A stretch of DNA of 33,145 nucleotides, from the IMG/VR virus record IMGVR_UViG_2879742664_000006; one strand, written 5' to 3'. Each line of letters starts with the position of its first letter. Position 1 is the stretch's first letter. Positions 1 to 31,426 of the stretch are shown one piece after another. The notes below the pieces were generated by a model, which saw nothing but the letters and a program-made list of their open reading frames with translations, did not search any database and was not told the DNA's origin. Source of the stretch: a virus (taxonomy: Duplodnaviria > Heunggongvirae > Uroviricota > Caudoviricetes). Both the position numbers and the translations under genes were made by a program.

Positions 1-55
1 GTGAACCGCCCCGGGAATCCTGGAGACTAAACTCCCTGAGAAAGAGGTAAACAGG

Positions 56-382
56 ATGACTAAAAATACTCGTTTTTCCCCCGAAGTCCGTCAGAGGGCG
101 ATTCGTATGGTTCTGGAAAGTCAGGGCGAATATGACTCACAGTGGGCGGCAATTTGTTCCATTGCCCCAAAGATTGGCTGTACACCGGAGACTCTGCGTG
201 TCTGGGTACGCCAGCATGAGCGGGATACCGGAGGCGGTGATGGCGGGCTCACCACCGCTGAACGTCAGCGTCTGAAAGAGCTGGAACGTGAAAATCGTGA
301 ACTGCGCCGCAGTAACGATATCCTTCGCCAGGCTTCCGCTTATTTTGCGAAGGCGGAGTTCGACCGCCTCTGGAAAAAGTGA
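56..382 (+). CDS. IS3-family transposase OrfA (HTH DNA-binding subunit)
   Basis: 108-aa [29 protein letters not shown]... with leucine-zipper-like C-terminus ([18 protein letters not shown]), typical of IS3-family OrfA. Confidence 0.9.
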
Positions 383-1269
383 TGCCACTGCTGGATAAGC
401 TGCGTAAGCTGTACGGGGTCGGACCGGTATGCAGTGAACTACATATTGCCCCGTCAACGTATTACCACTGTCAGCAACAGCGACATCATCCTGATAAACG
501 CAGTGCCCGTGCGCAGCGCGATGACTGGCTGAAGAAAGAGATACTGCGCGTATACGATGGGAATCATCAGGTATACGGTGTGCGTAAAGTCTGGCGTCAG
601 TTGTTACGGGAAGGTATCAGAGTGGCCAGATGCACTGTGGCACGTCTCATGGCGGTTATGGGACTTGCCGGTGTTCTCCGGGGTAAAAAGGTCCGTACGA
701 CCATCAGCCGGAAAGCCGTTGCCGCAGGCGACCGCGTAAACCGTCAGTTCGTGGCAGAACGACCTGACCAGCTGTGGGTGGCTGATTTTACTTACGTCAG
801 CACATGGCAGGGCTTCGTCTATGTGGCGTTCATTATTGATGTGTTTGCCGGATACATCGTGGGGTGGCGGGTCTCATCGTCCATGGAAACGACATTCGTG
901 CTGGATGCTCTGGAGCAGGCGTTATGGGCCCGTCGACCGTCCGGCACGGTCCATCACAGTGATAAAGGTTCTCAGTATGTATCGCTGGCCTACACACAGC
1001 GGCTTAAGGAAGCCGGATTACTGGCATCAACAGGAAGTACAGGCGACTCGTATGACAACGCGATGGCGGAGAGCATCAATGGTCTTTACAAAGCGGAGGT
1101 AATACACCGTAAGAGCTGGAAAAACCGTGCAGAAGTGGAACTGGCCACACTCACGTGGGTGGACTGGTATAATAATCGACGATTGCTGGAAAGGCTGGGC
1201 CACATCCCTCCGGCAGAAGCAGAAAAAGCTTATTATGCTTCCATCGGAAACGATGATCTGGCAGCCTGA
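379..1269 (+). CDS. IS3-family transposase OrfB (DDE catalytic domain), normally made as an OrfAB fusion by -1 frameshifting
   Basis: 296-aa ORF overlapping the orfA stop in the -1 frame; integrase-core-like residues (WVADFTY... HSDKGSQY... [15 protein letters not shown]). Confidence 0.9.
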
Positions 1270-1311
1270 GTTCACAGATAAAACACTCTCCAGGAAACCC
1301 GGGGCGGTTCA

Positions 1312-1430
1312 TGCTGAACGTGCGGCCCGTGACTCATTGACCAGAGCAATCCGAAGTCTGTATGACGTGGCTTTTTACGCTGATGATCTGGATGCACTTA
1401 ACGAACTTTCCGAGCTGATCTGTGCCGCAG
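1312..1430 (+). pseudogene. 3' remnant of an unidentified gene trapped between the IS629 end and an IS2 end
   Basis: Open frame ...AERAARDSLTRAIRSLYDVAFYADDLDALNELSELICAAVD runs from the IS629 boundary into the IS2 terminal repeat; no start codon of its own. Confidence 0.3.
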
Positions 1431-1695
1431 TGGATTTGCCCCTATATTTCCAGACATCTGTTATCACTTAACCCATTACAAGCCCGCTGCCGCAGATATT
1501 CCCGTGGCGAGTGATAACCCAGCGCACTATGCGGATGCCATTCGTTATAATGCTCGAACGCCTCTGCAAGGTTCTTTGCTGCCGTTAACCCGTCTGGTTT
1601 GGGCATGATACTGATGTAGTCACGCTTTATCGTTTTCACGAAGCTCTCTGCTATTCCGTTACTCTCCGGACTCCGCACCGCCGTGTTCTTCGGTT
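1431..1695 (-). mobile_element. IS2 right-end fragment (terminal repeat plus 3' end of insD), truncated by IS911
   Basis: Near-identical (1 mismatch seen) to the right end of the complete IS2 at 31416-31680; minus-strand ORF 1442..1768 encodes the InsD C-terminus ([25 protein letters not shown]...). Homology stops abruptly at 1695/1696 where the IS911 repeat begins. Confidence 0.8.
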
Positions 1696-1767
1696 TGAAG
1701 TGGCACACTGAATTTGGCCACCTGAACAGAGGTGATATGCTCACCTCAGAACAACACAGGTGCTCCA

Positions 1768-2936
<1,169 letters not shown>

Positions 2937-2944
2937 CCACTTCA

Positions 2945-3550
2945 AACCGCAAAAAAGCGAACGTCATGCGCCCGGTGGAGTACCAGAACGGCGAAGCATT
3001 CACTATCCGTAACGTACAGGTTATGCCTGAATCCATTCCGGCTGGCTTTAAGGCACTGGCTGACATGAGTCCGTTTGAATCCCTGCTGATTGTGGATTTG
3101 GGCGGAACCACGCTGGATGTGGCAAAGGTTCAGGGGCAACTGGCAGGTATCAGCCAGGTGTTTTGCGATCCACACGTGGGCGTTTCTCTGATGGCCGATG
3201 CCGTACTGTCGGTGATGGCCACTAACGGTATGCGCACCAGTCACCACATCGCCAATACCATTATCGAACATCGCCATGATGAAGCCTGGCTGCGCCAGCA
3301 CATCCACAATGACGCGCATTACGCCAGCCTGATGGCGGTAATTCGTGAAAAGGAAGAAACACTGAAACAACGCGTGATCCGCGCGCTGGCGGTTTTTTCG
3401 GGTTACGGGCGGGTGATGGTTGTCGGTGGAGGGGCGGAGATTGTGGCACCCGCTATCCGCGAAGCCTGCGGAGTTAATGCGACTTTCATCGCGGACGGGG
3501 TGCCACAGTTTGCTCTGGTTAATGGGCTGTACGCAATGGACAAGGAGTAA
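2945..3550 (+). pseudogene. ParM/StbA-like actin-type plasmid segregation ATPase, 5'-truncated by IS911 (C-terminal ~200 aa remain)
   Basis: Contains the actin-fold phosphate-2 motif LIVDLGGTTLDVAKV, preceded by VMPESIPAG and followed by VMVVGGGAE, as in R1 ParM (from memory). The frame opens exactly at the IS911 boundary. Confidence 0.7.
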
Positions 3551-3554
3551 ACCA

Positions 3555-3866
3555 ATGACGACTCCAACCAGACGGATAAGTTTCTATCTGAAGCCCACCG
3601 CCGTCAAGAACGAAGGAGAAGCATGCGCCTGGCTGGACAGCCTTACACCAGAAGCCCGCAAAAGCGGCCAACGCGTGGCTTTTCTGGCCGGGCTGGCACT
3701 TCTGAAAATGAATCCGGCAGAGGCTTATCGACTGGCTGCATGGGCTGGTGATGAAGCGTTATCAGTGACACAAACCAGGACAGAACGCCCCGCATCACAG
3801 CCAGTATCAACCGCACAGATAACCAGTCAGATGGCCGGAAATATCCGGGCGTTATTTCCTGAATAA
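3555..3866 (+). CDS. ParR/StbB-like small DNA-binding partner protein (putative)
   Basis: 103-aa ORF immediately downstream of the parM-like gene, RBS aaggag at 3542-3547; N-terminal ribbon-helix-helix-like region (RRISFYLKP). Assignment rests on position and size. Confidence 0.45.
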   Translation: MTTPTRRISFYLKPTAVKNEGEACAWLDSLTPEARKSGQRVAFLAGLALLKMNPAEAYRLAAWAGDEALSVTQTRTERPASQPVSTAQITSQMAGNIRALFPE

Positions 3867-3929
3867 CACAACATCAGGGCGAGTTCGCCCTGCTCTCCAC
3901 CTCAGAACATAAACAAGGAGAACGACTTA

Positions 3930-4520
3930 ATGAGCGAAATCAACTATCAGGCATTACGTGAACGTTATTCACCTGTGCCAGTACCGAAATGCCCTATTTG
4001 CGGCGAGGAAATGTCAATTCAGCGAATATCTGGAGCACAGGTTGTTTATGCCTGCTCCGGTTATGGTGATGATGGAGATTTCAAAATTGGCCGAACTCTT
4101 GCTGACAAACATTATGAAAAATCACGCGTAACAGTGTTGGATGTCGGGGATCCTGAAGTATTGGCGCTACTTGATTGGCTGGAAACCAAAGACAACCGAA
4201 TCGCTGAACTGGAAAAAATCGCCACTGACTATGCACTTAAATTCCAGAAAGCACAGGACGCATTAAAGCATGCCGCTTTGCTGCATAGCAGGACGGCGCA
4301 ACAAACAAATAATTTTGCAGTATCGCTTCCGGACATAAGCGAATATTTCATTAATGACGTATTTCAGCCCTTGCGATACGAGCGGGATGTTGAAAGAGCC
4401 ATCATAAAGGCTGGCGGAAAAGCATTGTGGCAGGAGAAACACGAGGACAGAACGCATCAGTCATGCGATGTAAATTGTGGATGGTTTAGCCCACTGACGA
4501 CAGATAAAAATAACACCTGA
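3930..4520 (+). CDS. Hypothetical protein with N-terminal CxxC...C zinc-ribbon-like motif
   Basis: 196-aa ORF; CPICGEEMSIQRISGAQVVYACSGYGDD; central coiled-coil-like stretch. No recognisable family. Confidence 0.6.
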   Translation: MSEINYQALRERYSPVPVPKCPICGEEMSIQRISGAQVVYACSGYGDDGDFKIGRTLADKHYEKSRVTVLDVGDPEVLALLDWLETKDNRIAELEKIATDYALKFQKAQDALKHAALLHSRTAQQTNNFAVSLPDISEYFINDVFQPLRYERDVERAIIKAGGKALWQEKHEDRTHQSCDVNCGWFSPLTTDKNNT

Positions 4521-4947
4521 TCCCCCTCAAACCAGGGCGATAATCGCACATCGCCCTGCTGCACATTTGCACAATTTTTTTGAACGAATTTTTGCCCTTC
4601 CAGCCCGCGTGGCGGCTGGATCCGTCAAGGATCCGTGCGTGCACAAAAAAACGCGCTTTTTCTGCGCGCAGGTGACGGGGGAACAGCCCGCGTTTCAGGG
4701 GGTAAATAGCGTTCCCTTAACGATGTCGCAGCGACACGACAGAATGGCCGTATTTCTCACGCTGAGCGTGAAAAATACGTGAGGGATTCTGATTTGATGG
4801 GGTGAAAGGTAAGGCCGTCAAAATCGCACTGAGGCGGCGAGAACATGCAGTCAACGCGGTGGGATTGCGTAAGAGTCTGACCGTCGATGGTGGCGATAAA
4901 CTGGAAGGCGTCGTGAAATTATCTGACTGATACAGGAGCTGGAGAGT

Positions 4948-4972
4948 CGGGGCATAAATTTTTTATGCCCCG
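4948..4972. terminator. Stem-loop between convergent genes (putative bidirectional terminator)
   Basis: cggggcataaa / tttatgccccg perfect inverted repeat with a T-rich loop, just 3' of the portal gene stop. Confidence 0.35.
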
Positions 4973-4998
4973 GCGAAGCAGCAGACAAGCGAAGCGCG

Positions 4999-6041
4999 TC
5001 AGGATGTGGGCTGGATGTCTAACAGTGCGTAAGGGTTAAAGCGGATCACCTCTTCGCCAAGCCAGTCATTGATGTGCTTCATGGCCTCCATGACGGGCAT
5101 CAGCTCGTTAATTGCGTAAACCCGCGCGGCCTTCTCCACATCACCAAACGCACTTTTTTCACCCGGCATCGCCCCCATCAGTTGCGGCGGAACGCGGTGC
5201 GCAGCCAGCACATCATCACGGGATGCCGCCTTAACATTCATGAACTCATCCTTTGCGGTGATCTGCTGGAACGGCAAAATTTGCACCCCCTCTTTGCCCC
5301 CGTTGGGCGCATGAATGAGCACGTTTTTAAACGCACCACCACCACGCGCACCCTGTAGCGTTTCTTTCAGGGAGTCCATGCTTTCGCGGTTTACCTGCGC
5401 GGCACCGATGTAGATGATGCACCCGGCGTGGGATCCGTTGTCGTAATACAGTTTTCTGAACATGTCCGCCGAATGAGACAGGCTGGCCGAGAGTAATGCG
5501 CCGAGATATTCCGGCATGCCGTAGATTTCCTGGTTAATGTCAGGATTCATCAGGTGACACACTTTGCCTGGGCGAAACTGAAACGCATCCTTGCCATCCT
5601 GCACATACCTCCATGATTCAAGATCGCTTCCGCGTCGCATGTATTTCGCCAGGGCGTGCCGTAATTTAAGCGGTTCGCCGAGCATATTGCTTCGAAGCTC
5701 AAGGAATGCGTTACCGAACACAAACCAGTCCAGCGCCAGCGCCAGCGCCGAGAAATCCTGCCGGGAAAGCAGCGGGTGCGGGATGTAGCAACCGAGCAAT
5801 ACATTGCGCTTAAAATAAAGCGCAGACTGATGCCAGGACGTTTGCCGGGCAGCTCTTGCCAGACCGTACCAGTCCACCGGGGTTTCATACCACCGCCCGT
5901 TATCAGCACAGTACATATTGTCCAGCAGGTCAGGCGATAAGGACCATCAAATGTGAATGCACTGAGCGATGATTCTTTCCTGAGCGCATCAGCGAGATCA
6001 ATGCGTGAACTCATGCGCACTTTTTTATTTTTTCTGCTCAT
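4999..6041 (-). pseudogene. Q: P2 gpQ-like portal protein, interrupted by a 1-bp frameshift near 5917-5946 as sequenced
   Basis: N-terminus MSRKNKKVRMSSRIDLADALRKESSLSAFTFDGP in one frame (track ORF 5550..6041), remainder MYCADNGRWYETPVDWYGL...RFNPYALLDIQPTS in another (4999..5916). Combined length 1043 nt is one short of a multiple of 3. Start overlaps the terminase stop (ATGA). Confidence 0.8.
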
Positions 6042-7792
6042 CAGAACTCCATAACCGTGAAACGCTCGTTTTCTCCTTCGCCGCCAATCGGTTCGTTAAT
6101 GACAGCAAGCATGGTTGCCCACGCAAGGTCGCCGTGGCTGATCCCCCTCGCTCGGTCCGTTTCGTAAGTGATAAAGCCGCCCGGTGTTTTCACCTTACGC
6201 ACGGCGTTAAAGGCCGCGACCAGCTCGCGTTCGGCGCGATCGTATTCCCACCGCCCGGCACGCATTATTTGCAGCATTTTCAGTACCAGCGACCGTTTTG
6301 ATGACAGCGTGAAGGTGTACGGAATAGCGGCAGGGAAAAACCGTTTCACTATCTGATAAACAGCCTCCCCGTTCCCGCCCGTCACATCAATGCCGATGTG
6401 TTCCACGTTGTAGCGACACGTGAACTCTTCAATGACTCTGGCCTGTTCTTCAAACTCCAGCCCCTGAACGCGTCGCGTCTCCACCGTTCGAAAACGGCCA
6501 CCAGGAACAGACGGAGGAACCACCACGGACACAGCGCCGCTGTCGCCGTTGCCACTGCTGCCGTTTGCGTCATACCCAATCCATACCGGACGATTCCCCA
6601 TCGGGCGGGGAGCAAAAGGTTTCCAGTCTTTCCAGTCGTCGTATCCGTCAACGCCGCAGCCAATCAGGATATTCAGGTTAAATGCCGATTCCCCTTCGCG
6701 GACAAACTCACACATATAGAGATTGAGGAACTCGTCTTCGGTGTTTTCATCACGAATTTCGTCGATATCGGTGTGTTTCCAGCCGTGATTAACCACATCT
6801 TCCAGCGTGACAATTTGCCGCCACGTCCGGTCAGGGCAGATAAGCCCGTTATGCAGCGTTTTCCAGTCCACAGAAAAACGCTGGCGTTTATGCGAGGCCT
6901 TTTTCTCGTTCCAGCGGTCGCCGTTCCAGTAGGCGTATGCCTCGTGCGTTTCGGTGGATGGCGTGGAGAAGTAGGTGCGCCGCAGTCCGCTGAGGGTTGC
7001 CATAGCGCCAGCCACCTTGCGCAGTTCAGCAAAGCGACTGACCCAGAAAAATTCATCAAAATAAAAATTGCCCGTATAGGACTGTGCCGACGCAGCAGAA
7101 GTGCCGAGAAAATGCAGCTCTGCGCCGTTGGAGAGGATGATTTTATCGCCCCCTTTCAGCTCCACATCAACTTCAGCCGCGGCCTTCTGAATAATGCTTT
7201 TAAACTGGAACGCCTGACGACGCGACGCAGACAAAAAAATCTGGTTACGCTGGTAAGGTTGCGCCACATCGTCACGCAGCGCCATCAGCAGTGCTTCCTG
7301 TGCAAAATACCAGGTCGCCCCAATCTGTCGGGATTTCAGGATCATCCTGTTACGTATCCCGGCTTCCCTGCAAAGGGTCAGGGAGTCAAACCAGCCCCGC
7401 TGATGCCACTCCAGCCTGCTGATGATTTTTTCCCGCAGTGCGGCAATCTGTTCCGGCGTGAAATGATTTTTGAGTTTTTTCGCCCGGCCTTTCTTTCCTG
7501 CGGCCATCACATCCGGCTGGCCATCATGCAGCTTTTTAAGCTGCCGGGTCAGCAGGTCTATTTCCTTAAAGTCACCGCCTGTTTTATTCTGTTTTTCAGT
7601 AAGCTGGATGAGGCGCGCATCGATGGACTGCGTGACACGCTGCCCGGGTGGCGTTTCATCCCACTGGTCACGTTTTTTCCACGCATAAATCGTGTTCGGG
7701 TTTATTCCCATCAGACGTGATATTTCTGCGGGCGGATAACCCTGCCAGTAAAGTTGCCGCGCACGCTGGCGCACAAAAGCGTCCTGAATCAT
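6041..7792 (-). CDS. P: P2 gpP-like terminase large (ATPase) subunit
   Basis: 583-aa intact ORF upstream of the portal gene and divergent from the scaffold gene, the P2 P-Q arrangement. Confidence 0.95.
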   Translation of the reverse strand: MIQDAFVRQRARQLYWQGYPPAEISRLMGINPNTIYAWKKRDQWDETPPGQRVTQSIDARLIQLTEKQNKTGGDFKEIDLLTRQLKKLHDGQPDVMAAGKKGRAKKLKNHFTPEQIAALREKIISRLEWHQRGWFDSLTLCREAGIRNRMILKSRQIGATWYFAQEALLMALRDDVAQPYQRNQIFLSASRRQAFQFKSIIQKAAAEVDVELKGGDKIILSNGAELHFLGTSAASAQSYTGNFYFDEFFWVSRFAELRKVAGAMATLSGLRRTYFSTPSTETHEAYAYWNGDRWNEKKASHKRQRFSVDWKTLHNGLICPDRTWRQIVTLEDVVNHGWKHTDIDEIRDENTEDEFLNLYMCEFVREGESAFNLNILIGCGVDGYDDWKDWKPFAPRPMGNRPVWIGYDANGSSGNGDSGAVSVVVPPSVPGGRFRTVETRRVQGLEFEEQARVIEEFTCRYNVEHIGIDVTGGNGEAVYQIVKRFFPAAIPYTFTLSSKRSLVLKMLQIMRAGRWEYDRAERELVAAFNAVRKVKTPGGFITYETDRARGISHGDLAWATMLAVINEPIGGEGENERFTVMEF

Positions 7793-7946
7793 TGCTCCCC
7801 CTGAGTAATTACAGGAAGATTACCCGCGCGCGAAACTGTTCTCCTTAACCCTCTGTTCTGGCCGTTTTCTTACAACAAAAGCCCTTTGTATCAGCCTGTT
7901 ACGCTTTGCCATCATGACTGAAGAACCAGTCAGAGGGGCAAAAACT
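7793..7946. promoter_or_regulatory. Divergent intergenic region between terminase P (-) and scaffold O (+); expected site of late promoters
   Basis: 154-bp non-coding gap between divergent operons; RBS gagggg 8 nt before the O start. No activator-binding site could be confirmed by eye. Confidence 0.3.
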
Positions 7947-8783
7947 ATGGCTAATGAAAAAAAGACATCCCGCAAAAAGTTTCGCGTGGCTGTCTCCGGA
8001 TCAACTGTTGATGGCCGTGAAATCAGTCCGGTGCATCTGCGTGAAGCCGCCGAGAACTTCAACCCGGATGTTTACGCTGCCCGCGTGAACGTTGAGCACT
8101 ATCTCTCGCCATGCCCGTCAAGCGAATTTTCCGCAATGGGCGATGTCACCGCACTGAGTACGGAAGACATTACGGAAGGTCCGCTGGCCGGACGTACTGC
8201 GCTGTATGCAGAAATCGAACCGACCGAGCGCATGAAGCAGCTTGTTGCGGACGGCAAGAAAATCTATTCCAGTATCGAACTGCACCCGCAGTTCTCCGTT
8301 AACGGGCGCGCCTATCTGGTCGGGCTGGCGATGACCGACACCCCGGCAAGCCTGGGCACTGAGCGCCTGAAATTCACGGCACAGCAACGTCAGGCGGTGA
8401 TGACGTTTAACAGTATCCAGGGTGAAGCGCCGCTTATCTCCGAAGCCATCGAGTCTGAAATCATCGAAATGGCAGAACAACGCCAGGAAGAAGGCACCCA
8501 GTGGTTTAACCGCGTAATGGGGATTATTGGCCGTGGCCGCAAAGCGGATGACGCCAGTTTTTCCCGTATTCAGGAAGCGGTGGAAGGCGTCGCAACGTCA
8601 CAGGCCGACATTATCGACCGTTTTAATGTGCTGGAAACCCGCCATCAGCAGGACCGCCAGAAAATTACGTCACTGACCACAGAGCTGGCAGCACTGAAGG
8701 AAAAACTGCGCACGCAGGACGGCGATCCGCAGAACCGCTTCACCGCAACGGGCGCAGCCTCCGACCAGCTGGCCGACTTCTGA
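7947..8783 (+). CDS. O: P2 gpO-like capsid scaffolding protein
   Basis: MANEKKTSRKKFRVAVSGSTVDGREISPVHLREAAENFNPDVY...; acidic C-terminus; position between P and N. Start taken at the internal ATG 7947 with an RBS. Confidence 0.9.
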   Translation: MANEKKTSRKKFRVAVSGSTVDGREISPVHLREAAENFNPDVYAARVNVEHYLSPCPSSEFSAMGDVTALSTEDITEGPLAGRTALYAEIEPTERMKQLVADGKKIYSSIELHPQFSVNGRAYLVGLAMTDTPASLGTERLKFTAQQRQAVMTFNSIQGEAPLISEAIESEIIEMAEQRQEEGTQWFNRVMGIIGRGRKADDASFSRIQEAVEGVATSQADIIDRFNVLETRHQQDRQKITSLTTELAALKEKLRTQDGDPQNRFTATGAASDQLADF

Positions 8784-8806
8784 TTAGACAAAGGAGCAAA
8801 TTTTTT

Positions 8807-9858
8807 ATGAATCTGGTGATGTCAGATATTACCCGCAACAAGCTGGGTTGCTATATGGCGCAGCAGGTGTCGCTTAATAATATCCCGGTATCTGCACTGG
8901 TGTCGCGATTTACCGTGGAACCCGCGGTGCAGCAGCGTTTTGAAAACGCCTCAAAGGAAAGTACCGAATTTACGAAAAAAATAACGTGATCGGCGTGACC
9001 GACCAGAAAGGCGAAAAAATCCTCCTGGATACCACAGGACCGATTGCGCGCACGAATACCAGTTATGACGGCACAAAACGCCGTAACCCGAATAACGTGG
9101 TTGATCTGAAAAACCGCAAATATCAGTGTGAACAGGTGAACTACGACACGTTTATTTCGTATCCGCAGCTTGATGCCTGGTCGGCACACCCTGATTTTCA
9201 GTCCCGCATCAGCGCACAGATTGCCCGACAGGTGGCGCTTGACCGCATCATGATCGGTTTCAACGGCACGTCTCACGCGGATGAGTCCAACTTCAGCACC
9301 AACAAGCTGCTTCAGGACGTTAACGTGGGCTGGCTGGAGCACATCAGAACCGACGCCAGCGAACGCGTTATGAATGACGTGACGCTGACCTCCCGCAACA
9401 TGGACAACACCGTGGCGCACGCGGGTAAGTATGCGAACGCTGATGCACTGGTACAGGACGCGCGTTCATCCCTGCTAGATGAATGGCACAAGGAAGCTGA
9501 CGACCTCGTGGTGATTATGGGGCGCAACCTGTTTAACTCGCTGCGTCTGCCCGTGCTGAACAGCATCAGCGGCCAGAATCCCAATGCGGAATTACTCGCC
9601 GGGCAGCTCATCCTGTCATCGCGCACCATTGGCGGGCTGGGCGTGTTCCTTGCGCCGTTCTTCCCGGATGCAACGATGCTGATCACCTCGTTCAACAACC
9701 TGTCGATTTACTGGCAGAAAGGTTCAATGCGTCGCCTGATGAAAGACGAGCCGGAATACAACCGCATCGCCACCTACCAGTCCATCAATGACGCTTATGT
9801 CGTTGAAGACTATGGCAAGTGCGCGATGGTTACTGGCCTGAAGTTCGCCGACAGCTAA
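8807..9858 (+). pseudogene. N: P2 gpN-like major capsid protein, frameshifted in an A-run at about 8975-8986 as sequenced
   Basis: Track ORFs 8807..8989 (ends ...ESTEFTKKIT*) and 8986..9858 (...VIGVTDQKGEKILLDTTGPIA...) are both capsid-like and adjacent frames; adding one base in acgaaaaaaataacg gives continuous ...TEFTKKINVIGVTDQ.... Confidence 0.85.
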
Positions 9859-9903
9859 TCAACTCACGGCGGGCATCATGCCCGCCTGTAACGGAGAGCA
9901 AAA

Positions 9904-10650
9904 ATGATTACTCCTGCACAACAACACTGGCAGAACGTGATGGCACAGCGCGCAGGCCGGGCGAATGAAGGCGTGGACCACGCCGCGCGTACCGCGCATG
10001 AAGAGGTGCTGTATCGTCTGCGTCTGGCACAGGCCCGGCTTAAGGGCGTACAGGCCAGAAGCGCGAAAGCCGCCATCAAAAAAGAGTTGTTGCCGGATTT
10101 TTCCGGCTGGATTGAGGGAACGCTGGAGGCTGACGGCGGGCAGCAGGATGAAGTGATTGCCACGCTGATGGTGTGGGCGATTGACTGTGGCGATCTTCCG
10201 CTTGCGCTGCGTATCGGCGCGTATGTAGTCCGTCACAACCTCATCATGCCGGATAACTTTGGCCGTACTGCTGCCACGGTACTGACCGAAGAAATCTGTA
10301 ATCCGGTACTGACGCAGGCCGGGACGGATGCCGACGCGGATTTGTCCGCCTTTATCGAACCACTGGACACCCTCCGGGAGATTGTCACCGACCAGGACAT
10401 GCCGGACGAAGTGCGCGCCAAATTATGCAAAGCGTGCGCCTTTGCCCGCCGTGGCCTGAGTGATGCGGACAGCATGGCCCTGTCACTGAAGCTGCTGCGC
10501 GAAGCAATGCACCTGAACCCGAACGCAGGTGTGAAACGCGAGATTGCAACCCTTTCCCGCGCCCTGAAAAAAGCCGATTCCGCAGCCGAACCAGAAGACG
10601 CCAGCGCACAGCAGGCGCAGGACGAAAGCAGCAAAAAGCAGCAAAAGTAA
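9904..10650 (+). CDS. M: P2 gpM-like terminase small (endonuclease) subunit
   Basis: 248-aa ORF following the capsid gene, as in P2. Confidence 0.9.
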   Translation: MITPAQQHWQNVMAQRAGRANEGVDHAARTAHEEVLYRLRLAQARLKGVQARSAKAAIKKELLPDFSGWIEGTLEADGGQQDEVIATLMVWAIDCGDLPLALRIGAYVVRHNLIMPDNFGRTAATVLTEEICNPVLTQAGTDADADLSAFIEPLDTLREIVTDQDMPDEVRAKLCKACAFARRGLSDADSMALSLKLLREAMHLNPNAGVKREIATLSRALKKADSAAEPEDASAQQAQDESSKKQQK

Positions 10651-10817
10651 AAAGACAACGCGGAAGCCTGCAACACGAAAAACCACCGCGACGCAGAAGG
10701 CGAAGCGCGGTTAACGACTGACCCCGTCAGCGGGCGGCGTGCGCGGTGTTCCAGTTTGACTCCGTGACCGTTTACACCGCGCACCCACCGCCCGATTTTT
10801 TTTCAGGAGTGAACCCC

Positions 10818-11312
10818 ATGACTATAGTTGCCAGAACTGAACCCGGACCCGCAGAGGACGACATCACCGATACCGATGATGGCGATACCCGCATTTCAGC
10901 GGGTGCATTCTGGCCGGATATTGTGCTGCGCGAGCTGCGTCTGGCGGTACGACTGCCGGGGCGCGTGACCACCTCCCGCCTGCTGCATACTGCCACCGGG
11001 GCTGTGGCACACGTTACCCGCGAGCTGGAAGCATGGCAGCAGGAACAGCAGGCAGCTGGCCATCAGACGCTGGCCGATGTTCCGGCACCCGTAATTAACG
11101 GAGAAAGCGTCAATCTCTGGCACTGGCGCAATGCTGTTTATACCGCCACGCGCGCCCTGATTCTGGAGCGTTATCGTGATGCAGACACTACGGACAAGGG
11201 CGACCGCCGGGCAGACGCTCTGGATATACAGACATCGGATTTGTGGCGTGATGTGAGCTGGGCCATCTCTGACATTCTGTGCCGCCCGCGAATCTTTGCG
11301 GAGTTGTGCTGA
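10818..11312 (+). CDS. L: P2 gpL-like head completion protein
   Basis: MTIVARTEPGPAEDD...; RBS caggag before ATG 10818; stop overlaps the next start (TGATG). Confidence 0.85.
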   Translation: MTIVARTEPGPAEDDITDTDDGDTRISAGAFWPDIVLRELRLAVRLPGRVTTSRLLHTATGAVAHVTRELEAWQQEQQAAGHQTLADVPAPVINGESVNLWHWRNAVYTATRALILERYRDADTTDKGDRRADALDIQTSDLWRDVSWAISDILCRPRIFAELC

Positions 11313-11512
11313 TGAAAGTGAAGGCACTGGAAGGCGACACCGTGGATTCGCTCTGTTTCCGGTACTACGGCACGACGCAGGGCGTCACCGAAAAGGTGCT
11401 GGATGCCAACCCCGGACTCTGTCAGCAGGTATTTCTGGACGCCGGGCAGGAAGTGGAGATGCCGGAGCCGGAGAAGAAGAAACGAGAAATGATTCAGTTG
11501 TGGGGGGAGTAG
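11312..11512 (+). CDS. X: P2 gpX-like small tail protein
   Basis: 66-aa MKVKALEGDTVDSLCFRYYGTTQGVTEKVLDANPGL...; position after L. Confidence 0.8.
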   Translation: MKVKALEGDTVDSLCFRYYGTTQGVTEKVLDANPGLCQQVFLDAGQEVEMPEPEKKKREMIQLWGE

Positions 11513-11514
11513 CA

Positions 11515-11838
11515 GTGAGCACCATTCAAACAGGGATCACAGAGCAGGTTATTGCGTGGCTCTTTGACCACCTGCCAACGGTGTATGCAGTAGGCGCGGC
11601 GGTCAGCATTTCCGCGCTGATGAGCCTTTATGACGGACGAACACTGGTTCAGACCGTAACGGGATCGCTGGCGTGCGGCGTTCTTGCCATGGCCGTGGCC
11701 GGGTCGTTGCGCTTCTTCGGGTTTCCTGAAGATGCCGTGACGTTTATCGGCGCATCAATCGGTTTTATGGGTGCAGAGAAAGCACGCGACAAGGTTATTG
11801 CGGCCTTTAATCGCAGGGTGAAGGAGAAGGACGAATGA
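11515..11838 (+). CDS. Putative holin
   Basis: 107-aa GTG-initiated ORF with RBS gggggag; hydrophobic helices (WLFDHLPTVYAVGAAVSISALMSL; LACGVLAMAVAGSL) and charged C-terminus; directly upstream of the endolysin. Confidence 0.6.
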   Translation: MSTIQTGITEQVIAWLFDHLPTVYAVGAAVSISALMSLYDGRTLVQTVTGSLACGVLAMAVAGSLRFFGFPEDAVTFIGASIGFMGAEKARDKVIAAFNRRVKEKDE

Positions 11839-12227
11839 GCAACACATTTAAATTCAGCAGCCGGAGCGAAAAGAATTTGCAGGGTGTAAATCCTGATCTG
11901 GTGAAAGTGACCCGACGGGCACTGGAAATCTCGGAAGTGGATTTTGGTATCACCGAAGGGTTGCGCAGCCGTTACCGCCAGAAGCAACTGGTGGCCACGG
12001 GTAAGAGCCAGACCATGAACAGCCGCCACCTTACGGGGCATGCCGTGGATGTTGTGGCTTATATCGGCAGCCAGATGTCATGGGAATGGCCGCTGTACGA
12101 AAAAATCGCAGCAGCATTCAGACAGGCCAGCCGGGAACTGAATATTCCGGTGGAATGGGGCGGCGACTGGAAGACCCTGAAAGACGGACCGCATTTTCAG
12201 TTACCACACGGAGCCTATCCGGCATGA
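11835..12227 (+). CDS. Endolysin, peptidase M15 (VanY/L-Ala-D-Glu peptidase-like)
   Basis: 130 aa; zinc-binding signature SRHLTGHAVD (SxHxxGxAxD) and downstream DGPHFQL; overlaps the holin stop (ATGA). Confidence 0.8.
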   Translation: MSNTFKFSSRSEKNLQGVNPDLVKVTRRALEISEVDFGITEGLRSRYRQKQLVATGKSQTMNSRHLTGHAVDVVAYIGSQMSWEWPLYEKIAAAFRQASRELNIPVEWGGDWKTLKDGPHFQLPHGAYPA

Positions 12228-12631
12228 AGCTCTGGCCCACGCTTGGCGTCGCTTTCCTTCTGACTGCCGGATGGGGAACATCCATGCGTCTGTCGTGGTC
12301 GCTGGGCCGGGAGAACGCCAGAAACGAAGCGCAGGCCAGCACCCTGAAAAGTACCGCCGACACCCTGAATATCATCAGCGCCGGGGTACAGGATATGCAG
12401 CAGGTGCTGGCGCAACTCCGCGTGGAAAATCAGCAACGCAATCAGGACGGAGAGGTAAGACGTGAACAGCTACGCAACGATATTGCAAAAGATGAATGCG
12501 CCCACGCTTTGCCTGACGCTCGTTTTACTGACAGGCTGCGCAGGCACGCAGAACGCGCCACTGCCAGCGCCGTCAGTCCGGCTTATACCGCAGACGCTGA
12601 CCATACCGGTAACGCCTCCCCCCTTCCCTGA
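12224..12631 (+). CDS. i-spanin (Rz/LysB-like inner-membrane spanin)
   Basis: MKLWPTLGVAFLLTAGWG N-terminal membrane anchor then coiled-coil-like region; start overlaps the endolysin stop; contains the nested o-spanin in another frame. Confidence 0.6.
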   Translation: MKLWPTLGVAFLLTAGWGTSMRLSWSLGRENARNEAQASTLKSTADTLNIISAGVQDMQQVLAQLRVENQQRNQDGEVRREQLRNDIAKDECAHALPDARFTDRLRRHAERATASAVSPAYTADADHTGNASPLP

Positions 12632-12782
12632 CACTCCCACATGGGGAAATCTCGGTATATGGGGCGACCGCCTTCTGGATGCACTGGAAACCTGTAACGC
12701 GGATAAACGGGCCATTGAATTACTGGAACAGCGCAGGCTGCAACGACTGAACAACGAGGATAACAACCATGCTGAAAACTGA
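12492..12782 (+). CDS. o-spanin (Rz1/LysC-like outer-membrane lipoprotein), overlapping the i-spanin
   Basis: MNAPTLCLTLVLLTGCAG lipoprotein signal with lipobox LTGC, proline-rich mature part; +1 frame overlap with the i-spanin and extends past it. Confidence 0.6.
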   Translation: MNAPTLCLTLVLLTGCAGTQNAPLPAPSVRLIPQTLTIPVTPPPFPDTPTWGNLGIWGDRLLDALETCNADKRAIELLEQRRLQRLNNEDNNHAEN

Positions 12783-13236
12783 TTCCCTGCGTGAAGCCAT
12801 GACCCGTTCATGCCGATGGTGTCAGGCTAACCCGGAAAAATTCACCATTTTCGTGGAGAGCGGCAACATTGAAACGACCGGAGAAACCCCATCGTTTGTT
12901 TACCGCTATCAGATGGTGATGTTTGTCATGGATTACGCCGGGGAGCTGGACGACCTCACGCTGCCGCTGCTGGCGTGGTTATCCGAAAATCAGCCACAGT
13001 TGTTGCTCAACCCTGAGCGTAATCAGGACATCAAATTTTCCGCCGTTATCAATGACGATGACAGCGCCGATCTCCTGTTTACGCTCCCCCTGCGGGAACG
13101 CGTTCGCATCACGCGCAGCAGTCAGGGCACACCGCAGGCAGAACACCTGCTGGAGCCAAAACCCCGCCTGCCATCTTCCGAAGGCGACTGGTCGCATGTA
13201 TTCCAGGATGTGACGTGGGGTGAAAGCGATGGATAA
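12769..13236 (+). CDS. R: P2 gpR-like tail completion protein
   Basis: 155-aa MLKTDSLREAMTRSCRWCQANPEKFTIFVESGN...; position after lysis genes. Confidence 0.8.
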   Translation: MLKTDSLREAMTRSCRWCQANPEKFTIFVESGNIETTGETPSFVYRYQMVMFVMDYAGELDDLTLPLLAWLSENQPQLLLNPERNQDIKFSAVINDDDSADLLFTLPLRERVRITRSSQGTPQAEHLLEPKPRLPSSEGDWSHVFQDVTWGESDG

Positions 13237-13864
13237 GGCATTCACTCGCGTGGATGAAACCTTTGAGGCCATCCGCGACAGCCTGAATCAGCAGGCCATC
13301 AATAACATCGCCAGAAAGCTGGCACAGGATTTACGCCGCGCCCAGCAGGCACGTATCCGGCCACAGAAAGCGCCGGACGGGACCGCATGGACACCACGCA
13401 GACGCCACGTAACCCGGATACAGGAGCGCATTCGCTTTATCTGGAATAACGAAGCACGCACGCTGAAAAACTGGCATCACGACACGGGGAAATACGGGCG
13501 AACCATCACCGGGTGGGATGAGGATAAAAACAGCATCCGCACGTTTTACCGGGATGACATCGACCGCTTTCTGGAAATACGCACCCGGCGCATCAACCAG
13601 GACAGCACAAAGCGCGTCCCCATGTTCGTAAAACTGCGCACCGCCCGCTACCTGAAAGCCCGTGCAGATGCTTCCGGTGTGACGGTGGGTTACAGCGGCG
13701 TGGCCGCACGTATTGCACGCGTTCATCAGTTCGGTGAGCGCGATCAGGTTGCGCCGGGCATTTTCACCGATTACCCGGTACGTGAGCTGCTGGGTATCAG
13801 CCAGGCAGATGAGCGCCTGATTTATAACACGGTGCTGGGCCGGATTGCGGAGGCTGTACGGTGA
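13229..13864 (+). CDS. S: P2 gpS-like tail completion protein
   Basis: ...ARIARVHQFGERDQVAPGIFTDYPVRELLGISQADERLIYNTV... resembles the gpS C-terminus; start could be GTG 13220 or ATG 13229. Confidence 0.75.
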   Translation: MDKAFTRVDETFEAIRDSLNQQAINNIARKLAQDLRRAQQARIRPQKAPDGTAWTPRRRHVTRIQERIRFIWNNEARTLKNWHHDTGKYGRTITGWDEDKNSIRTFYRDDIDRFLEIRTRRINQDSTKRVPMFVKLRTARYLKARADASGVTVGYSGVAARIARVHQFGERDQVAPGIFTDYPVRELLGISQADERLIYNTVLGRIAEAVR

Positions 13865-14442
13865 GCGCAGAACTCATGCGGCTACTGAGCAATATCATCC
13901 GCACCGGGATCATCTCTGAAGTTGATGAGAAGTCCTGGCGCGTGCGCGTTCGCAGCGGCGAACTGGAAACAGGTTGGCTGCGCTGGAACACCTCTCGCGC
14001 GGGAGCCTTCAATGTGTGGCTGCCGCCATCACCAGGCGAACAGGTGGTAATTGCCTGCATTGGCGGCAACCCGGAAACCGCCATGATAATTGGCAGCCTG
14101 TGGAGTGATGCCATTCCGGCCCCCGGCAAAAGCCTGAAAGAAATCGTGGTCAGCGCGCCGGATGGCGCGGTGTTCCGCTACGACGCGGACGCAGGCGCAC
14201 TGAGCGCCAGCGGCATGAAAACAGCCACCCTGCAGGCATCCGTCAGCGTGACACTGGATACGCCCGTCGTGGAATGCACAGACCTTCTGAGAACGGCGAC
14301 GCTTGACGTCACAAAAGGGGGAAAGATGAGCGGCAATATCACGCACAGCGGCGGTAATTTCACCTCAAACGGCATCACAGTGCATACGCATAAACACGGT
14401 GGCGTTAAAGGTGGCAGCGATTCGACAGGAGGCCCGCAGTGA
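13861..14442 (+). CDS. V: P2 gpV-like baseplate spike/hub protein
   Basis: GTG start overlapping S stop; ...VVIACIGGNPETAMIIGSLWSD... and C-terminal ...NGITVHTHKHGGVKGGSDSTGGP. Confidence 0.85.
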   Translation: MSAELMRLLSNIIRTGIISEVDEKSWRVRVRSGELETGWLRWNTSRAGAFNVWLPPSPGEQVVIACIGGNPETAMIIGSLWSDAIPAPGKSLKEIVVSAPDGAVFRYDADAGALSASGMKTATLQASVSVTLDTPVVECTDLLRTATLDVTKGGKMSGNITHSGGNFTSNGITVHTHKHGGVKGGSDSTGGPQ

Positions 14443-14789
14443 CAACCCGCTACACAGGAATGAACCCGGACGGAACGGGAAACCTGAACGATATGGAGCA
14501 CCTGAAACAGTCAGTCAGGGACATCCTGACCACCCCGCTGGCAAGCCGGGTTATGCGACGGGAATATGGCAGCCTTGTGCCTGATTTGATTGACGAACCC
14601 ATGAATAACACCACGCGTCTGCAATGCATGAGTGCTGCCGTGATTGCGCTGACACGATGGGAACCCCGCATTGCCCTGGACGCTATCGACGTTGTCTGGA
14701 AGGCAGGAGGCCGCGCCGGGGTGACGCTGTCGGGCACTGTCATGCAGACCATGCAGAATGTTGAATTAACCATCACGCTGAGGGAGTAA
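14439..14789 (+). CDS. W: P2 gpW-like baseplate wedge protein (gp25-like)
   Basis: 116-aa ORF, GTG start overlapping the V stop; position between V and J. Confidence 0.85.
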   Translation: MTTRYTGMNPDGTGNLNDMEHLKQSVRDILTTPLASRVMRREYGSLVPDLIDEPMNNTTRLQCMSAAVIALTRWEPRIALDAIDVVWKAGGRAGVTLSGTVMQTMQNVELTITLRE

Positions 14790-14792
14790 ATC

Positions 14793-15689
14793 ATGCCTGC
14801 CGTTGACCTTTCACAGTTACCGGAACCCGCCATCATCGCGGAGCCTGACTTTGAGGCAATTCTGGCTGACACAAAGGCCATGATGATTGCGTCCTATCCC
14901 GCCGAACAGCGTGAAGCCGTTTCCGCCGCGCTGGAGCTGGAATCGGAACCCCTTAACGTTATCGCTCAAACCATGTCGTTTCGTGAAATGCTGTTACGCC
15001 AGCGGGTCAATGAGGGTGCACGCGCCTGCATGCTAAGCCACAGCGCCGGGACAGACCTGGACAACCTCGCGGGCAATATGAACACAAAGCGCCTGGTTAT
15101 CACTCCGGCAACGGATACCACCGATGCAGTGATGGAAAGTGACACCTCGCTGAGACTACGGGCGCAACGGGCATATGACGGTCTGAGTGTTGCTGGCCCG
15201 TCAGGTGCATACGAGTATTTTGCACGCAGCGCCAGCGGTCTGGTACGCGATGCGCGGGCCATCAGCCCGTCTCCGGCCAACGTGACGGTTTCCATCCTGT
15301 CCACTGAGGGCGACGGCACAGCAACGGAGGCGTTGCTTAATACCGTTCGCGCCGTTCTGAATGCAGAGGATACCCGCCCGGTGGCCGACCGCCTGACCGT
15401 ACAGAGTGCCAGAATCGTGACATGGCGGCTGAATGCAAAACTGTACTTTTACCCCGGCCCGGAATCCGAACCTATTCTGGCCGCGGCTGAATCGTCGTTC
15501 AGGAAGTGGCTGGCTGAGCAGGGGCTTATCGGTCAGGACGTGGCGTTGTCCGCCATTGCTGCCGCACTGCATGTGCACGGTGTGCAACGCGTGGAGATAA
15601 TCGAACCCACACAGAATATGGCCATCAGCGACATACAGGCGGCGCGCTGTGCGTCATTCACCATCAGCGAAGGTGGACGCAATGAGTAA
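14793..15689 (+). CDS. J: P2 gpJ-like baseplate assembly protein
   Basis: 298-aa ORF in the V-W-J-I order. Confidence 0.9.
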   Translation: MPAVDLSQLPEPAIIAEPDFEAILADTKAMMIASYPAEQREAVSAALELESEPLNVIAQTMSFREMLLRQRVNEGARACMLSHSAGTDLDNLAGNMNTKRLVITPATDTTDAVMESDTSLRLRAQRAYDGLSVAGPSGAYEYFARSASGLVRDARAISPSPANVTVSILSTEGDGTATEALLNTVRAVLNAEDTRPVADRLTVQSARIVTWRLNAKLYFYPGPESEPILAAAESSFRKWLAEQGLIGQDVALSAIAAALHVHGVQRVEIIEPTQNMAISDIQAARCASFTISEGGRNE

Positions 15690-16212
15690 TTCGTTGTTAC
15701 CACCATCAGCCAGCAATTTCATGCGTTGTGCCGAAGCCGTCGGAACACGCATTACAGACATTCCGGTAGACCTCAACACGCTGTGGTCGCCGGACACCTG
15801 CCCGGTGCATCTGCTGCCTTATCTCGCCTGGGCGTTTTCCGTTGACCGCTGGGATCGCAACTGGCCGGAAGAGACAAAGCGACAGGTTATTCGTGATGCA
15901 TGGCTGATACACCGACACAAAGGGACCATCAGCGCACTGCGCCGGGCCATTGAGCCGCTGGGATACCTCATTCGCGTGTCTGAGTGGTGGGAGTTCGGCG
16001 GAGAACCGGGAACATTTACCGTTGAAGTCGGCACGCTGGACAGTGGCGTGACGGAGGAAATGTATCTGGAAATGGAGCGGTTGATTGCTGATGCCCGCCC
16101 GGTCAGCCGCCACATGACAGGGCTGAATATCATTCAGGAAATTCCGGGGGATATTTTCGCAGCGGCGGCAACTTATGACGGTGAAGTTATTACCATTTAT
16201 CCAGGCGATTAA
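15682..16212 (+). CDS. I: P2 gpI-like baseplate/tail protein
   Basis: MSNSLLPPSASNFMRCAEAVGTRITDIPVDL...; start ATG 15682 overlaps the J stop. Confidence 0.85.
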   Translation: MSNSLLPPSASNFMRCAEAVGTRITDIPVDLNTLWSPDTCPVHLLPYLAWAFSVDRWDRNWPEETKRQVIRDAWLIHRHKGTISALRRAIEPLGYLIRVSEWWEFGGEPGTFTVEVGTLDSGVTEEMYLEMERLIADARPVSRHMTGLNIIQEIPGDIFAAAATYDGEVITIYPGD

Positions 16213-16214
16213 GC

Positions 16215-18200
16215 ATGAGTACCACAACACGAAAATTTAAAACCATTATCACCGATACGGGTGCAAAAAAATTAGCTCAGGTAGCCGCGCCAGATGGTAA
16301 GCCTGTCCGCCTGACTCATATGGCCGTGGGCGACGGTGGCGGCACGTTGCCCACACCAGACAGTAAGCAGACCCGTCTGGTGCATGAGGTGTGGCGACAT
16401 ACTGTTAATCGCGTCATCCTGGACGCAACACATCAGAACCGCATTATTGCGGAGCTGGTTATTCCTCCTGAAACGGGCGGATTCTGGATCCGGGAAATTG
16501 GTGTATTTGATGAGCACGGCGATTTAATCGCGGTGGGAAATACTGCCGAAAGTTACAAGCCAGCCGTTGCCGAAGGGTCCGGTCGTGCACAAACATTTCG
16601 CACCATTCTGACCGTATCCAGCACTGCCACCGTGGCGCTTACCGTGGACAACACCATGGTGATGGCCACAGTGGATTACGTGGATGACAAACTGAAAGAG
16701 CATGAACAGTCACGACGTCACCCGGACGCCTCGCTGACCGCAAAAGGCTTTGTTCAACTCAGTAGCGCCACTAACAGCGTGTCTGAAACGCAGGCTGCAA
16801 CGCCGAAAGCAGTAAAGGCCGCGTATGATCTTGCTAACGGTAAATATACTGCGCAGGATGCCAGCACGACGCGAAAAGGCCTTGTCCAGCTCAGTAGCGC
16901 CACCAACAGCACGTCTGAAACGCAGGCTGCAACGCCGAAAGCAGTAAAGGCCGCGTATGACCTTGCTAACGCAAAATATACCGCTCAGGACGCCACGACG
17001 GCACAAAAAGGGATAGTCCAGCTCAGTAGTGCCACCAACAGCACGTCTGAAACACTGGCCGCGACATCGAAAGCGGTTAAGGCGGTAATGGATGAAACGA
17101 ACAAGAAAGCGCCCTTAAACAGTCCTGCGCTGACCGGAACGCCAACAACGCCAGCTGCGCGACAGGGAACGAATAATACCCAAATCGCAAGCACGGCTTT
17201 CGTTATGGCTGCGATTGCCGCCCTTGTAGATTCGTCACCTGACGCACTGAATACGCTGAACGAGTTAGCGGCGGCGCTGGGAAACGCCCCGAATTTTGCG
17301 ACCACCATGACTAACGCGCTTGCGGGTAAGCAACCGAAAGATGCCACCCTGACGGCGCTGGCCGGGCTTGCTACTGCGGCAGACAGGTTTCCGTATTTTA
17401 CGGGGAATGATGTCGCCAGCCTGGCAACCCTGACAAAAGTCGGGCGGGATATTCTTGCGAAATCGACCGTTGCTGCCGTTATCGAATACCTCGGTTTACG
17501 AGAACTCGGCACAAGCGGGGAGAAAATACCGTTACTCAGTACAGCGAATACCTGGACCAATCGACAAACATTCAGCGGTGGCCTTTCTGGGGAACTGTCC
17601 GGCAATGCCGCTACTGCAACAAAGCTGAAAACAGCACGAAAAATTGCTGGAGTTGGTTTTGATGGTTCTAGCGATATTTCAATTAGTGCCAAAAATGTCA
17701 ATGCATTTGCACTCCGACAAACAGGTAATACTGTTAATGGTGATACATCCGTTGGATGGAATTGGGATAGTGGTGCATATAACGCCCTGATTGGTGGTGC
17801 ATCTGCATTAATTCTTCACTTTAATATAAATGCTGGTAGCTGTCCTGCCGTACAATTCCGTGTGAATTATAAAAATGGTGGCATTTCCTACAGGTCGGCT
17901 CGTGATGGTTATGGGGTTGAATTAGGTTGGTCAGATTTCTATACCACGACACGAAAACCTTCAGCGGGAGATGTTGGTGCATATACGCGGGCAGAATGTA
18001 ACTCAAGGTTTATTACAGGTATTCGCCTTGGCGGTCTGTCATCTGTTCAGACATGGAATGGTCCCGGCTGGTCTGACAGGTCAGGTTATGTCGTTACGGG
18101 TTCAGTTAACGGAAACCGTGATGAATTAATTGATACAACACAGGCAAGGCCAATTCAGTATTGCATTAATGGGACGTGGTATAACGCGGGGAGTATTTAA
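16215..18200 (+). CDS. H: Tail fibre protein (P2 gpH-like), current fusion of constant N-terminal part with variable C-terminal segment Sv
   Basis: 661 aa; three tandem 44-aa collar repeats (KGxVQLSSATNSxSETQAATPKAVKAAYDLANxKYTAQDA); conserved crossover motif ...IEYLGLRE... at the gix-like site; followed by an assembly chaperone gene. Confidence 0.9.
   Translation: MSTTTRKFKTIITDTGAKKLAQVAAPDGKPVRLTHMAVGDGGGTLPTPDSKQTRLVHEVWRHTVNRVILDATHQNRIIAELVIPPETGGFWIREIGVFDEHGDLIAVGNTAESYKPAVAEGSGRAQTFRTILTVSSTATVALTVDNTMVMATVDYVDDKLKEHEQSRRHPDASLTAKGFVQLSSATNSVSETQAATPKAVKAAYDLANGKYTAQDASTTRKGLVQLSSATNSTSETQAATPKAVKAAYDLANAKYTAQDATTAQKGIVQLSSATNSTSETLAATSKAVKAVMDETNKKAPLNSPALTGTPTTPAARQGTNNTQIASTAFVMAAIAALVDSSPDALNTLNELAAALGNAPNFATTMTNALAGKQPKDATLTALAGLATAADRFPYFTGNDVASLATLTKVGRDILAKSTVAAVIEYLGLRELGTSGEKIPLLSTANTWTNRQTFSGGLSGELSGNAATATKLKTARKIAGVGFDGSSDISISAKNVNAFALRQTGNTVNGDTSVGWNWDSGAYNALIGGASALILHFNINAGSCPAVQFRVNYKNGGISYRSARDGYGVELGWSDFYTTTRKPSAGDVGAYTRAECNSRFITGIRLGGLSSVQTWNGPGWSDRSGYVVTGSVNGNRDELIDTTQARPIQYCINGTWYNAGSI
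16743..17100. repeat. Tandem 132-bp repeats (about 2.7 copies) inside the tail fibre gene
   Basis: Near-identical DNA units beginning aaaggc(t/c)ttgt(t/c)ca(a/g)ctcagtagcgcc at 16743 and 16875, partial third from 17007. Confidence 0.7.
17479..17504. other. Left gix/cix-like crossover site of the invertible fibre segment (inside H)
   Basis: ttatcgaatacctcggtttacgagaa is the imperfect inverted complement of the site at 20158-20183 (shared core cctcggtttac); lies at the EYLGL codons. Confidence 0.7.
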
Positions 18201-18202
18201 CG

Positions 18203-18736
18203 ATGATGCACTTAAAAAACATTACTGCTGGCAACCCTAAAACAAAAGAGCAATACCAGCTAACAAAGCAATTTAACATCAAATGGCTTTATTCAGATGA
18301 TGGGAAAAACTGGTATGAGGAACAAAAGAATTTCCAGCCAGACACTTTGAAAATGGTCTATTACCATAACGGCGTTATTATTTGTATTGAAAAGGATGTT
18401 TCAGCAATTAATCCGGAAGGCGCAAGCGTCGTTGAATTACCTGATATTACAGCAAATCGCCGGGCTGATATTTCGGGGAAATGGTTGTTCAAAGATGGCG
18501 TAGTGATAAAGCGAACTTATACCGAGGAAGAGCAGAGGCAACAAGCGGAAAATGAAAAGCAAAGCCTGTTGCAACTTGTCAGGGATAAAACCCAGCTATG
18601 GGACTCACAGCTACGGCTGGGCATCATTTCCGACGAGAATAAACAAAAATTAACCGAGTGGATGCTCTATGCGCAGAAAGTCGAATCTACAGACACCTCC
18701 AGCCTGCCAGTAACGTTTCCCGAACAACCAGAATGA
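18203..18736 (+). CDS. Tail fibre assembly chaperone (Tfa; P2 gpG / Mu U-like)
   Basis: 177-aa [40 protein letters not shown]...; directly after the fibre gene; paralogous to the minus-strand copy at 18765-19293. Confidence 0.85.
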   Translation: MMHLKNITAGNPKTKEQYQLTKQFNIKWLYSDDGKNWYEEQKNFQPDTLKMVYYHNGVIICIEKDVSAINPEGASVVELPDITANRRADISGKWLFKDGVVIKRTYTEEEQRQQAENEKQSLLQLVRDKTQLWDSQLRLGIISDENKQKLTEWMLYAQKVESTDTSSLPVTFPEQPE

Positions 18737-18739
18737 GAG

Positions 18740-18766
18740 AAGGCCCGATATTGGGCCTTAATTTTT
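18740..18766. terminator. Bidirectional terminator hairpin between the two convergent chaperone genes
   Basis: aaggccc-gatatt-gggcctt perfect hairpin followed by aattttt. Confidence 0.5.
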
Positions 18767-19293: not shown

Positions 19294-19296
19294 AAT

Positions 19297-20183: not shown

Positions 20184-20237
20184 TGGCCGTTTCTGGCCTG
20201 CATGGCATGATTTGCGCTTTTGGACGGGAGATTCAGT

Positions 20238-31415: not shown

Positions 31416-31426
31416 TGGATTTGCCC

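Follow-up and report, generated by a model that had tools for sequence, protein, structure and literature searches.

The portal gene of the prophage in this window (the whole stretch of DNA analysed, 33,145 nucleotides) is split into two reading frames by a 10-bp deletion between two copies of a 5-bp direct repeat. We hold it very probable that this slippage-type deletion struck the portal gene of an already dead prophage and represents neutral, inherited decay, with no regulatory or recoding device behind the split. The lesion is a case of ordinary pseudogene decay, of which both the mechanism and the setting are already known. Deletion between short direct repeats is typical of replication slippage or of a microhomology-mediated event, and Shigella is known for cryptic or defective prophages, pseudogenes, IS expansion and gene decay. 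The analysis corrects the description of the lesion, identifies the host lineage and supplies a few nested markers. The portal region contains the following features.

4999 to 6041, minus strand, 1043 nt: portal (gpQ-type, PF04860) pseudogene of a P88-like prophage
5550 to 6041, minus strand: frameshifted 163-residue ORF, native portal sequence for its first 38 residues and out of frame for the other 125
4999 to 5916, minus strand: residual 305-residue ORF, equal to P88 portal residues 46-348 plus two residues from a repeat expansion, starting at the internal Met46
6041 to 7792, minus strand: terminase large subunit, 583 residues, intact, directly upstream of the portal
5932 to 5928, minus strand: deletion junction, the sole remaining TGACC copy of the 5-bp direct repeat
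5732 to 5749, minus strand: in-frame run of three GGCGCT hexanucleotides (coding-strand sequence), translated as Ala-Leu repeats

The TGA stop of the terminase gene and the ATG of the portal gene (6041, minus strand) overlap as ATGA. The ORF that starts at this ATG begins MSRKNKKVRMSSRIDLADALRKESSLSAFTFDGPYRLT and ends at a stop at 5550, and upstream the frame of the 305-residue portal body (MYCADNGRWYE...) runs into a TGA at 5949-5947. Because the N-terminus and the body lie in different frames and the span from 6041 to 4999 measures 1043 nt, a multiple of three minus 1, the frame change must fall in 5946-5917. In tblastn searches, the P88 portal matches the window in two frames: residues 1-38 in frame -3 (100% identity, E=1e-18) and residues 41-348 in frame -2 (98.7% identity). 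The two ORFs are thus one gene and not a chance pair. The 305-residue ORF also matches the Phage_portal profile PF04860 in a Pfam search (63 bits against a cut-off of 39.1, E=3.4e-17). The source annotation table likewise gives PF04860 for the portal region and calls the 305-residue ORF as a gene, and the protein cluster listing places this ORF with ordinary 348-residue portals of E. coli. The frameshifted 163-residue ORF had no match in the Pfam search and no record in an exact look-up in the sequence collection. Among solved structures, the P88 portal matched distant HK97-family portals only (6TE8 and 6TBA, E=1e-5, over residues 99-321, with the N-terminal region outside the match).

An earlier, sequence-only reading of this DNA had already described the portal of a P2-family (Peduoviridae) phage, with its N-terminus and the rest of the protein in different frames, a switch within 5917-5946 and a length one nucleotide below a multiple of three. 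The P88 matches and the PF04860 profile bear out the family, and the frames and the length hold as well, with the break about 38 codons into the gene. The same reading had allowed for a true start at the Met at 5916 with an unrelated ORF upstream, which is ruled out by the identity of the first 38 residues to the N-terminus of the P88 portal. Annotated intact portals are single ORFs of 1041-1047 nt (P88, 520873 and Shae_phiSM). The window has no single uninterrupted ORF of ~345 residues here; the frame breaks after codon 38, with the position and the ATGA overlap conserved. Judged by its frames and its profile match, the portal gene of the window is best classed as a pseudogene of the PF04860 family without functional membership. 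For annotation, 4999 to 6041 is best entered as a portal pseudogene carrying a 10-bp deletion, and neither as two genes nor as a single-base error that can be corrected.

Alignments with five intact relatives (P88, 520873, Shae_phiSM, Chuche and the E. coli ETEC4088 prophage) give the same 10-bp gap in the window each time. The relatives read TATCGCC-TGACC-GGGCA-TGACC-TGCTGGAC, and the window reads TATCGCC-TGACC-TGCTGGAC; around the site the intact relatives have CGCC-TGACC-GGGCA-TGACC-TGCTGG, of which the window lacks the 10 bp TGACCGGGCA. The ancestral form TGACC-GGGCA-TGACC was read in P88, 520873, Chuche and ETEC4088, and the window retains one TGACC. The intact form of the site is 27 bp long (CGCCTGACCGGGCATGACCTGCTGGAC). 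Within 5900-5960 of the window, the deletion-bearing form is CGCCTGACCTGCTGG and the undeleted form would be CGCCTGACCGGGCATGACCTGCTGG. The deletion affects portal codons 38-41, where the intact protein reads ...GPYRLTGHDLLDN... across the site. The single-base repair suggested earlier, CC to CCC with the product GPYRPDLLDN, is refuted by the alignment, in which the relatives read GPYRLTGHDLLDN and the window lacks the 10 bp between the TGACC repeats. The loss is bounded by direct repeats with one copy retained, and this arrangement points to replication slippage or a microhomology-mediated process as the presumable cause.

The apparent deficit of one nucleotide has a second contributor. The hexanucleotide GGCGCT occurs once in 520873, twice in P88 and in most relatives, three times in the window and four times in CP026866.1 and CP026867.1. 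Taking the 1047 nt of the P88 gene, subtracting 10 and adding 6 for the extra GGCGCT copy gives 1043 nt. The one-nucleotide deficit therefore fits a 10-bp deletion, because the 6-bp repeat expansion, an unrelated event, offsets the length. A gene that is short by one nucleotide need not have lost one nucleotide.

The portal region is 96-97% identical to P88-like phages (Xuanwuvirus, Peduoviridae) in megablast searches. Across the structural module, identity to P88, 520873, 503458 and Shae_phiSM is 96-98%, and the structural genes of the window are colinear with those of P88 by tblastn. Nucleotide similarity and gene order together identify the window as a Xuanwuvirus (P88-like) prophage. The DNA of the P88 portal (YP_009113066.1) and of its E. 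coli prophage copies (such as ETEC4088, WP_000087810.1) is 97-99.5% identical to the window, with the closest E. coli prophage, ETEC4088, at 99.5%. P88 shares the terminase large subunit upstream, the ATGA overlap and the synteny with the window, but the window differs by the missing 10 bp, one extra GGCGCT, a broken frame and the loss of a full-length product.

The gene had been named portal gene Q in the earlier reading. The portal assignment stands, and the identification with Q of P2 itself does not: the gene is the orthologue of the P88/Xuanwuvirus group and has 47% identity to P2 gpQ. The P88 protein and P2 gpQ (NP_046757.1) align over residues 26-341 (E=1e-113), starting at P88 residue 26 and P2 residue 23, and they share PF04860 and the gene order Q-P. 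They differ in genus (Xuanwuvirus against Peduovirus) and in their N-terminal ~25 residues, which are unrelated, and Q of P2 is intact and processed to Q*.

The left flank in CP026811.1, the chromosome that matches the window (see below), contains a 45-residue integrase remnant and two hypothetical genes, followed by btuC, btuE, btuD and nlpC. The insertion site beside btuC is common to the window prophage and the ETEC4088 prophage. We note that the ETEC4088 prophage, with an intact portal, has a frameshift in its DUF2570/lysis gene and a shortened gpD (25655-26059 and 40294-41147 of its locus), and may be non-inducible too, judged by these lesions.

The portal lesion had been treated as isolated at first, yet the same decayed prophage carries at least eight inactivating lesions. 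Besides the portal deletion, these include the following.

8807 to 9858, plus strand: major capsid gene (gpN type) that has lost 1 nt at 8982 (TT to T), leaving ORFs of 60 and 290 residues
10627 to 10646, plus strand: 10-bp tandem duplication in the small terminase gene terS (AGCAGCAAAA twice), which frameshifts the C-terminal end (248 against 266 residues)
24758 to 25265, minus strand: tail tube gene with two 1-nt deletions in homopolymers, in the T-run 24882-24885 and the C-run 25070-25074
26727 to 26729, plus strand: nonsense change TCA to TAA in codon 41 (S41*) of gpD (26607 to 27716)
31416 to 32745, minus strand: IS2, 1330 bp, interrupting ogr (late-gene activator) in its 3' part
2 to 2940, plus strand: IS block in place of the integrase-C-cox-replication genes; its parts are an IS629-like element at 2-1311, a fragment of IS2 at 1431-1695 and, at ~1696-2940, a second IS3-family element

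The lesions were compared with P88, Shae_phiSM, Chuche and ETEC4088. A tblastn search with P88 proteins found int, C, cox and repA (the replication endonuclease) to be absent from the window, and ParM (2945 to 3547) is truncated at residue 119 by the second IS3-family element. The set of genes essential for an inducible prophage is incomplete, with portal, capsid, terS, tube, gpD and ogr all disrupted. The window resembles the cryptic prophages of Shigella such as that of Sb227: the same prophage lies in other Shigella-type chromosomes, with the capsid and terS lesions shared, and IS2, IS629-like and other IS3-family elements replace or interrupt its phage genes. As for the insertion elements themselves, tnpB of the full IS2 in ogr is split into two ORFs (31966 to 32331 and 31427 to 31975), and the 265-bp IS2 fragment at 1431-1695 is 99.6% identical to one end of this full copy.

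The codon changes private to the window lineage number 12 non-synonymous to 10 synonymous, against 129:400 for the sum of three intact phages (31:87 for P88, 40:105 for Shae_phiSM and 58:208 for Chuche; Fisher p=0.004). The ratio of the window is consistent with relaxed selection, with the reservation that short branches tend to inflate such ratios, as deleterious variants that are not yet purged can do; the ETEC4088 branch has 7 non-synonymous to 4 synonymous changes. The portal substitutions of the window lineage include W146R.

Of the other explanations, the one that survives best is that translation starts at the internal Met46 (5916) and yields a truncated 305-residue portal with some activity, for example as a domesticated protein or a dominant-negative decoy against P2-like phages. 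This ORF is open, keeps the Phage_portal domain and is called as a gene, and P2 gpQ loses its first 26 residues during maturation anyway, with the mature Q* modelled over residues 27-340 (bioRxiv 10.64898/2026.09.14.750843). However, Met46 corresponds to about residue 44 of P2 gpQ, and a product starting there would be without ~17 conserved residues from the ordered part of the mature portal. Upstream of the ATG there is only a GGA triplet, a weak Shine-Dalgarno sequence, and ribosomes coming from the native start cross the ATG at 5916 out of frame. Judged by sequence, the 305-residue ORF, which is open and called as a gene, may undergo weak internal initiation. The substitutions of the lineage, W146R among them, look unconstrained, and other Shigella strains have different disruptions of the portal (products of 228+97, 183+168 and 80+103+164 residues). 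We regard an active truncated portal as very improbable. The more specific version, in which S. flexneri serotype 6 expresses the 305-residue ORF as a decoy that co-assembles with, and poisons, the portal rings of P2/P88-type phages that superinfect it, appears slightly less probable still; were it true, the deletion would have turned a structural gene into an exclusion factor.

A second explanation is that the split arose in sequencing or assembly and that the portal is intact in the real genome. Long-read assemblies often have 1-nt errors of the homopolymer type. Three other lesions of the window are 1-nt deletions in or beside homopolymer runs, and some related records are rich in errors, with the portal of phage 503458, for instance, cut into four CDS. 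The portal lesion, however, is a 10-bp deletion between direct repeats, which is atypical of base-calling error, and its junction recurs. Positions 1-15916 of the window, the range over which the two were compared, are 100% identical to CP026811.1, the chromosome of Shigella flexneri serotype 6 strain 64-5500 (PMC9455713). The same junction is found in the Logan assembly of a separate SRA run, SRR4184743, with 2 SNPs over 13 kb. Marker counting also detected the 10-bp deletion in CP162080.1, ABEMYW010000032.1, AERO01000026.1, AAVTNG010000105.1 and AKMW01000043.1. Two of these records come from S. flexneri strains of serotype 6, AERO01 from CDC 796-83 and AKMW01 from CCH060 (PMC4206707). In total, at least six assemblies besides the source of the window carry the junction, draft assemblies with short contigs included. 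The capsid and terS lesions recur even more widely, the truncated capsid product in 1219 blocks of the collection and the truncated terS product in 847. Because the junction recurs in independent assemblies, the deletion should be a real and inherited mutation, a conclusion drawn at the level of assemblies, and an artefact is highly improbable.

The deletion appears to be specific to a sub-lineage, the named carriers being the S. flexneri serotype 6 strains 64-5500, CDC 796-83 and CCH060. Of 5426 complete E. coli genomes searched with the junction by megablast, 1055 carry the stretch, every one of them with the extra 10 bp. The exact junction CCTTAYCGCCTGACCTGCTGGACAATATG had zero matches in collections of viral sequences, GTDB-representative genomes and metagenome contigs, which do not include these Shigella assemblies, and an exact-protein look-up placed the 305-residue portal fragment on just two contigs. 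We considered that the deletion might be private to the window and rejected this, as exact-protein look-ups gave Shigella assemblies with the same junction. It is worth noting that three other Shigella-type chromosomes (CP026866.1, CP026867.1 and CP026872.1) contain the same prophage with the 10 bp kept and with portal and terminase genes that are fragmented differently. The three sets of portal products listed in the discussion of Met46 are theirs, and these fragmentations could be independent decay or assembly errors.

The last explanation, a programmed -1 ribosomal frameshift or other recoding that joins both ORFs into a functional portal, has next to no chance of being right, for although the frame change needed is -1 and both frames overlap stop-free across 5946-5917, this interval contains zero X XXY YYZ slippery heptamers, every intact relative has a single ORF, the split comes from a deletion for which a single Shigella sub-lineage supplies all known cases, the joined product would miss three conserved residues, and with the capsid, tube and gpD genes also broken a portal would be without assembly partners. 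A programmed frameshift site was rejected as a candidate on two of these grounds, the absence of the heptamer in 5946-5917 and of the two-frame arrangement in intact relatives.

Neutral decay by deletion is thus the reading we prefer, and the order in which the lesions accumulated agrees with it. We fetched 20 further loci by exact identity to the truncated capsid or terS product and counted markers in them. The capsid deletion is present in 20/20 of these Shigella-type loci, and the 10-bp duplication in terS is present in a subset of them. The portal deletion occurs only among carriers of the terS duplication, and the three-copy GGCGCT repeat only among carriers of the portal deletion, namely strain 64-5500 and SRR4184743. 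In CP000036.1, which we take to be S. boydii Sb227, the capsid and terS lesions coexist with an intact 348-residue portal; the window differs from Sb227 in this last respect. The marker table suggests the order capsid -1, terS +10, portal -10 and repeat +6. Part of the nesting reflects the choice of loci by capsid or terS identity, but the confinement of the portal deletion to carriers of the terS duplication, and of these to carriers of the capsid deletion, is independent of that choice.

We propose the following course of events. The setting is a P88-like prophage (Xuanwuvirus, Peduoviridae) adjoining btuC in S. flexneri serotype 6 strain 64-5500. Replication slippage or microhomology between the TGACC repeats would have removed 10 bp from the portal gene after the capsid gene was frameshifted and terS was altered, and the deletion was then inherited, being shared by several serotype 6 assemblies. 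Ribosomes starting at the ATG at 6041 would translate 38 native codons and 125 out-of-frame ones before the stop at 5550, presumably leaving no functional portal. Portal loss would be neutral decay because the prophage was already unable to build capsids. The nested lesions illustrate how a prophage may decay stepwise after the loss of its first essential gene, and the four markers offer a cheap set for separating the lineage that contains S. flexneri serotype 6 from S. boydii Sb227-like strains.

Several other genes of the window deserve mention. Between gpD and ogr, at a place where P2-type prophages carry variable cargo, the window has a 1039-residue ORF (27965-31084, plus strand). This large cargo protein has zero matches in NCBIfam, Pfam and PADLOC, searches that also give no support to the label 'MFS transporter' under which the ETEC4088 copy is annotated; the ORF is possibly a candidate defence gene. 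The segment with the tail-fibre and tail-fibre-assembly genes (17475-20187) is inverted relative to ETEC4088 and adjoins a DNA invertase gene at 20220-20837, so that it looks like an invertible host-range segment in the opposite orientation. Two further cargo genes are an Ead/Ea22-like ORF of 196 residues (3930-4520, plus strand), flanked by the partition genes on one side and the portal on the other, and, at the right end of the window, a gene for a hok/gef-family toxin (33005-33142, plus strand).
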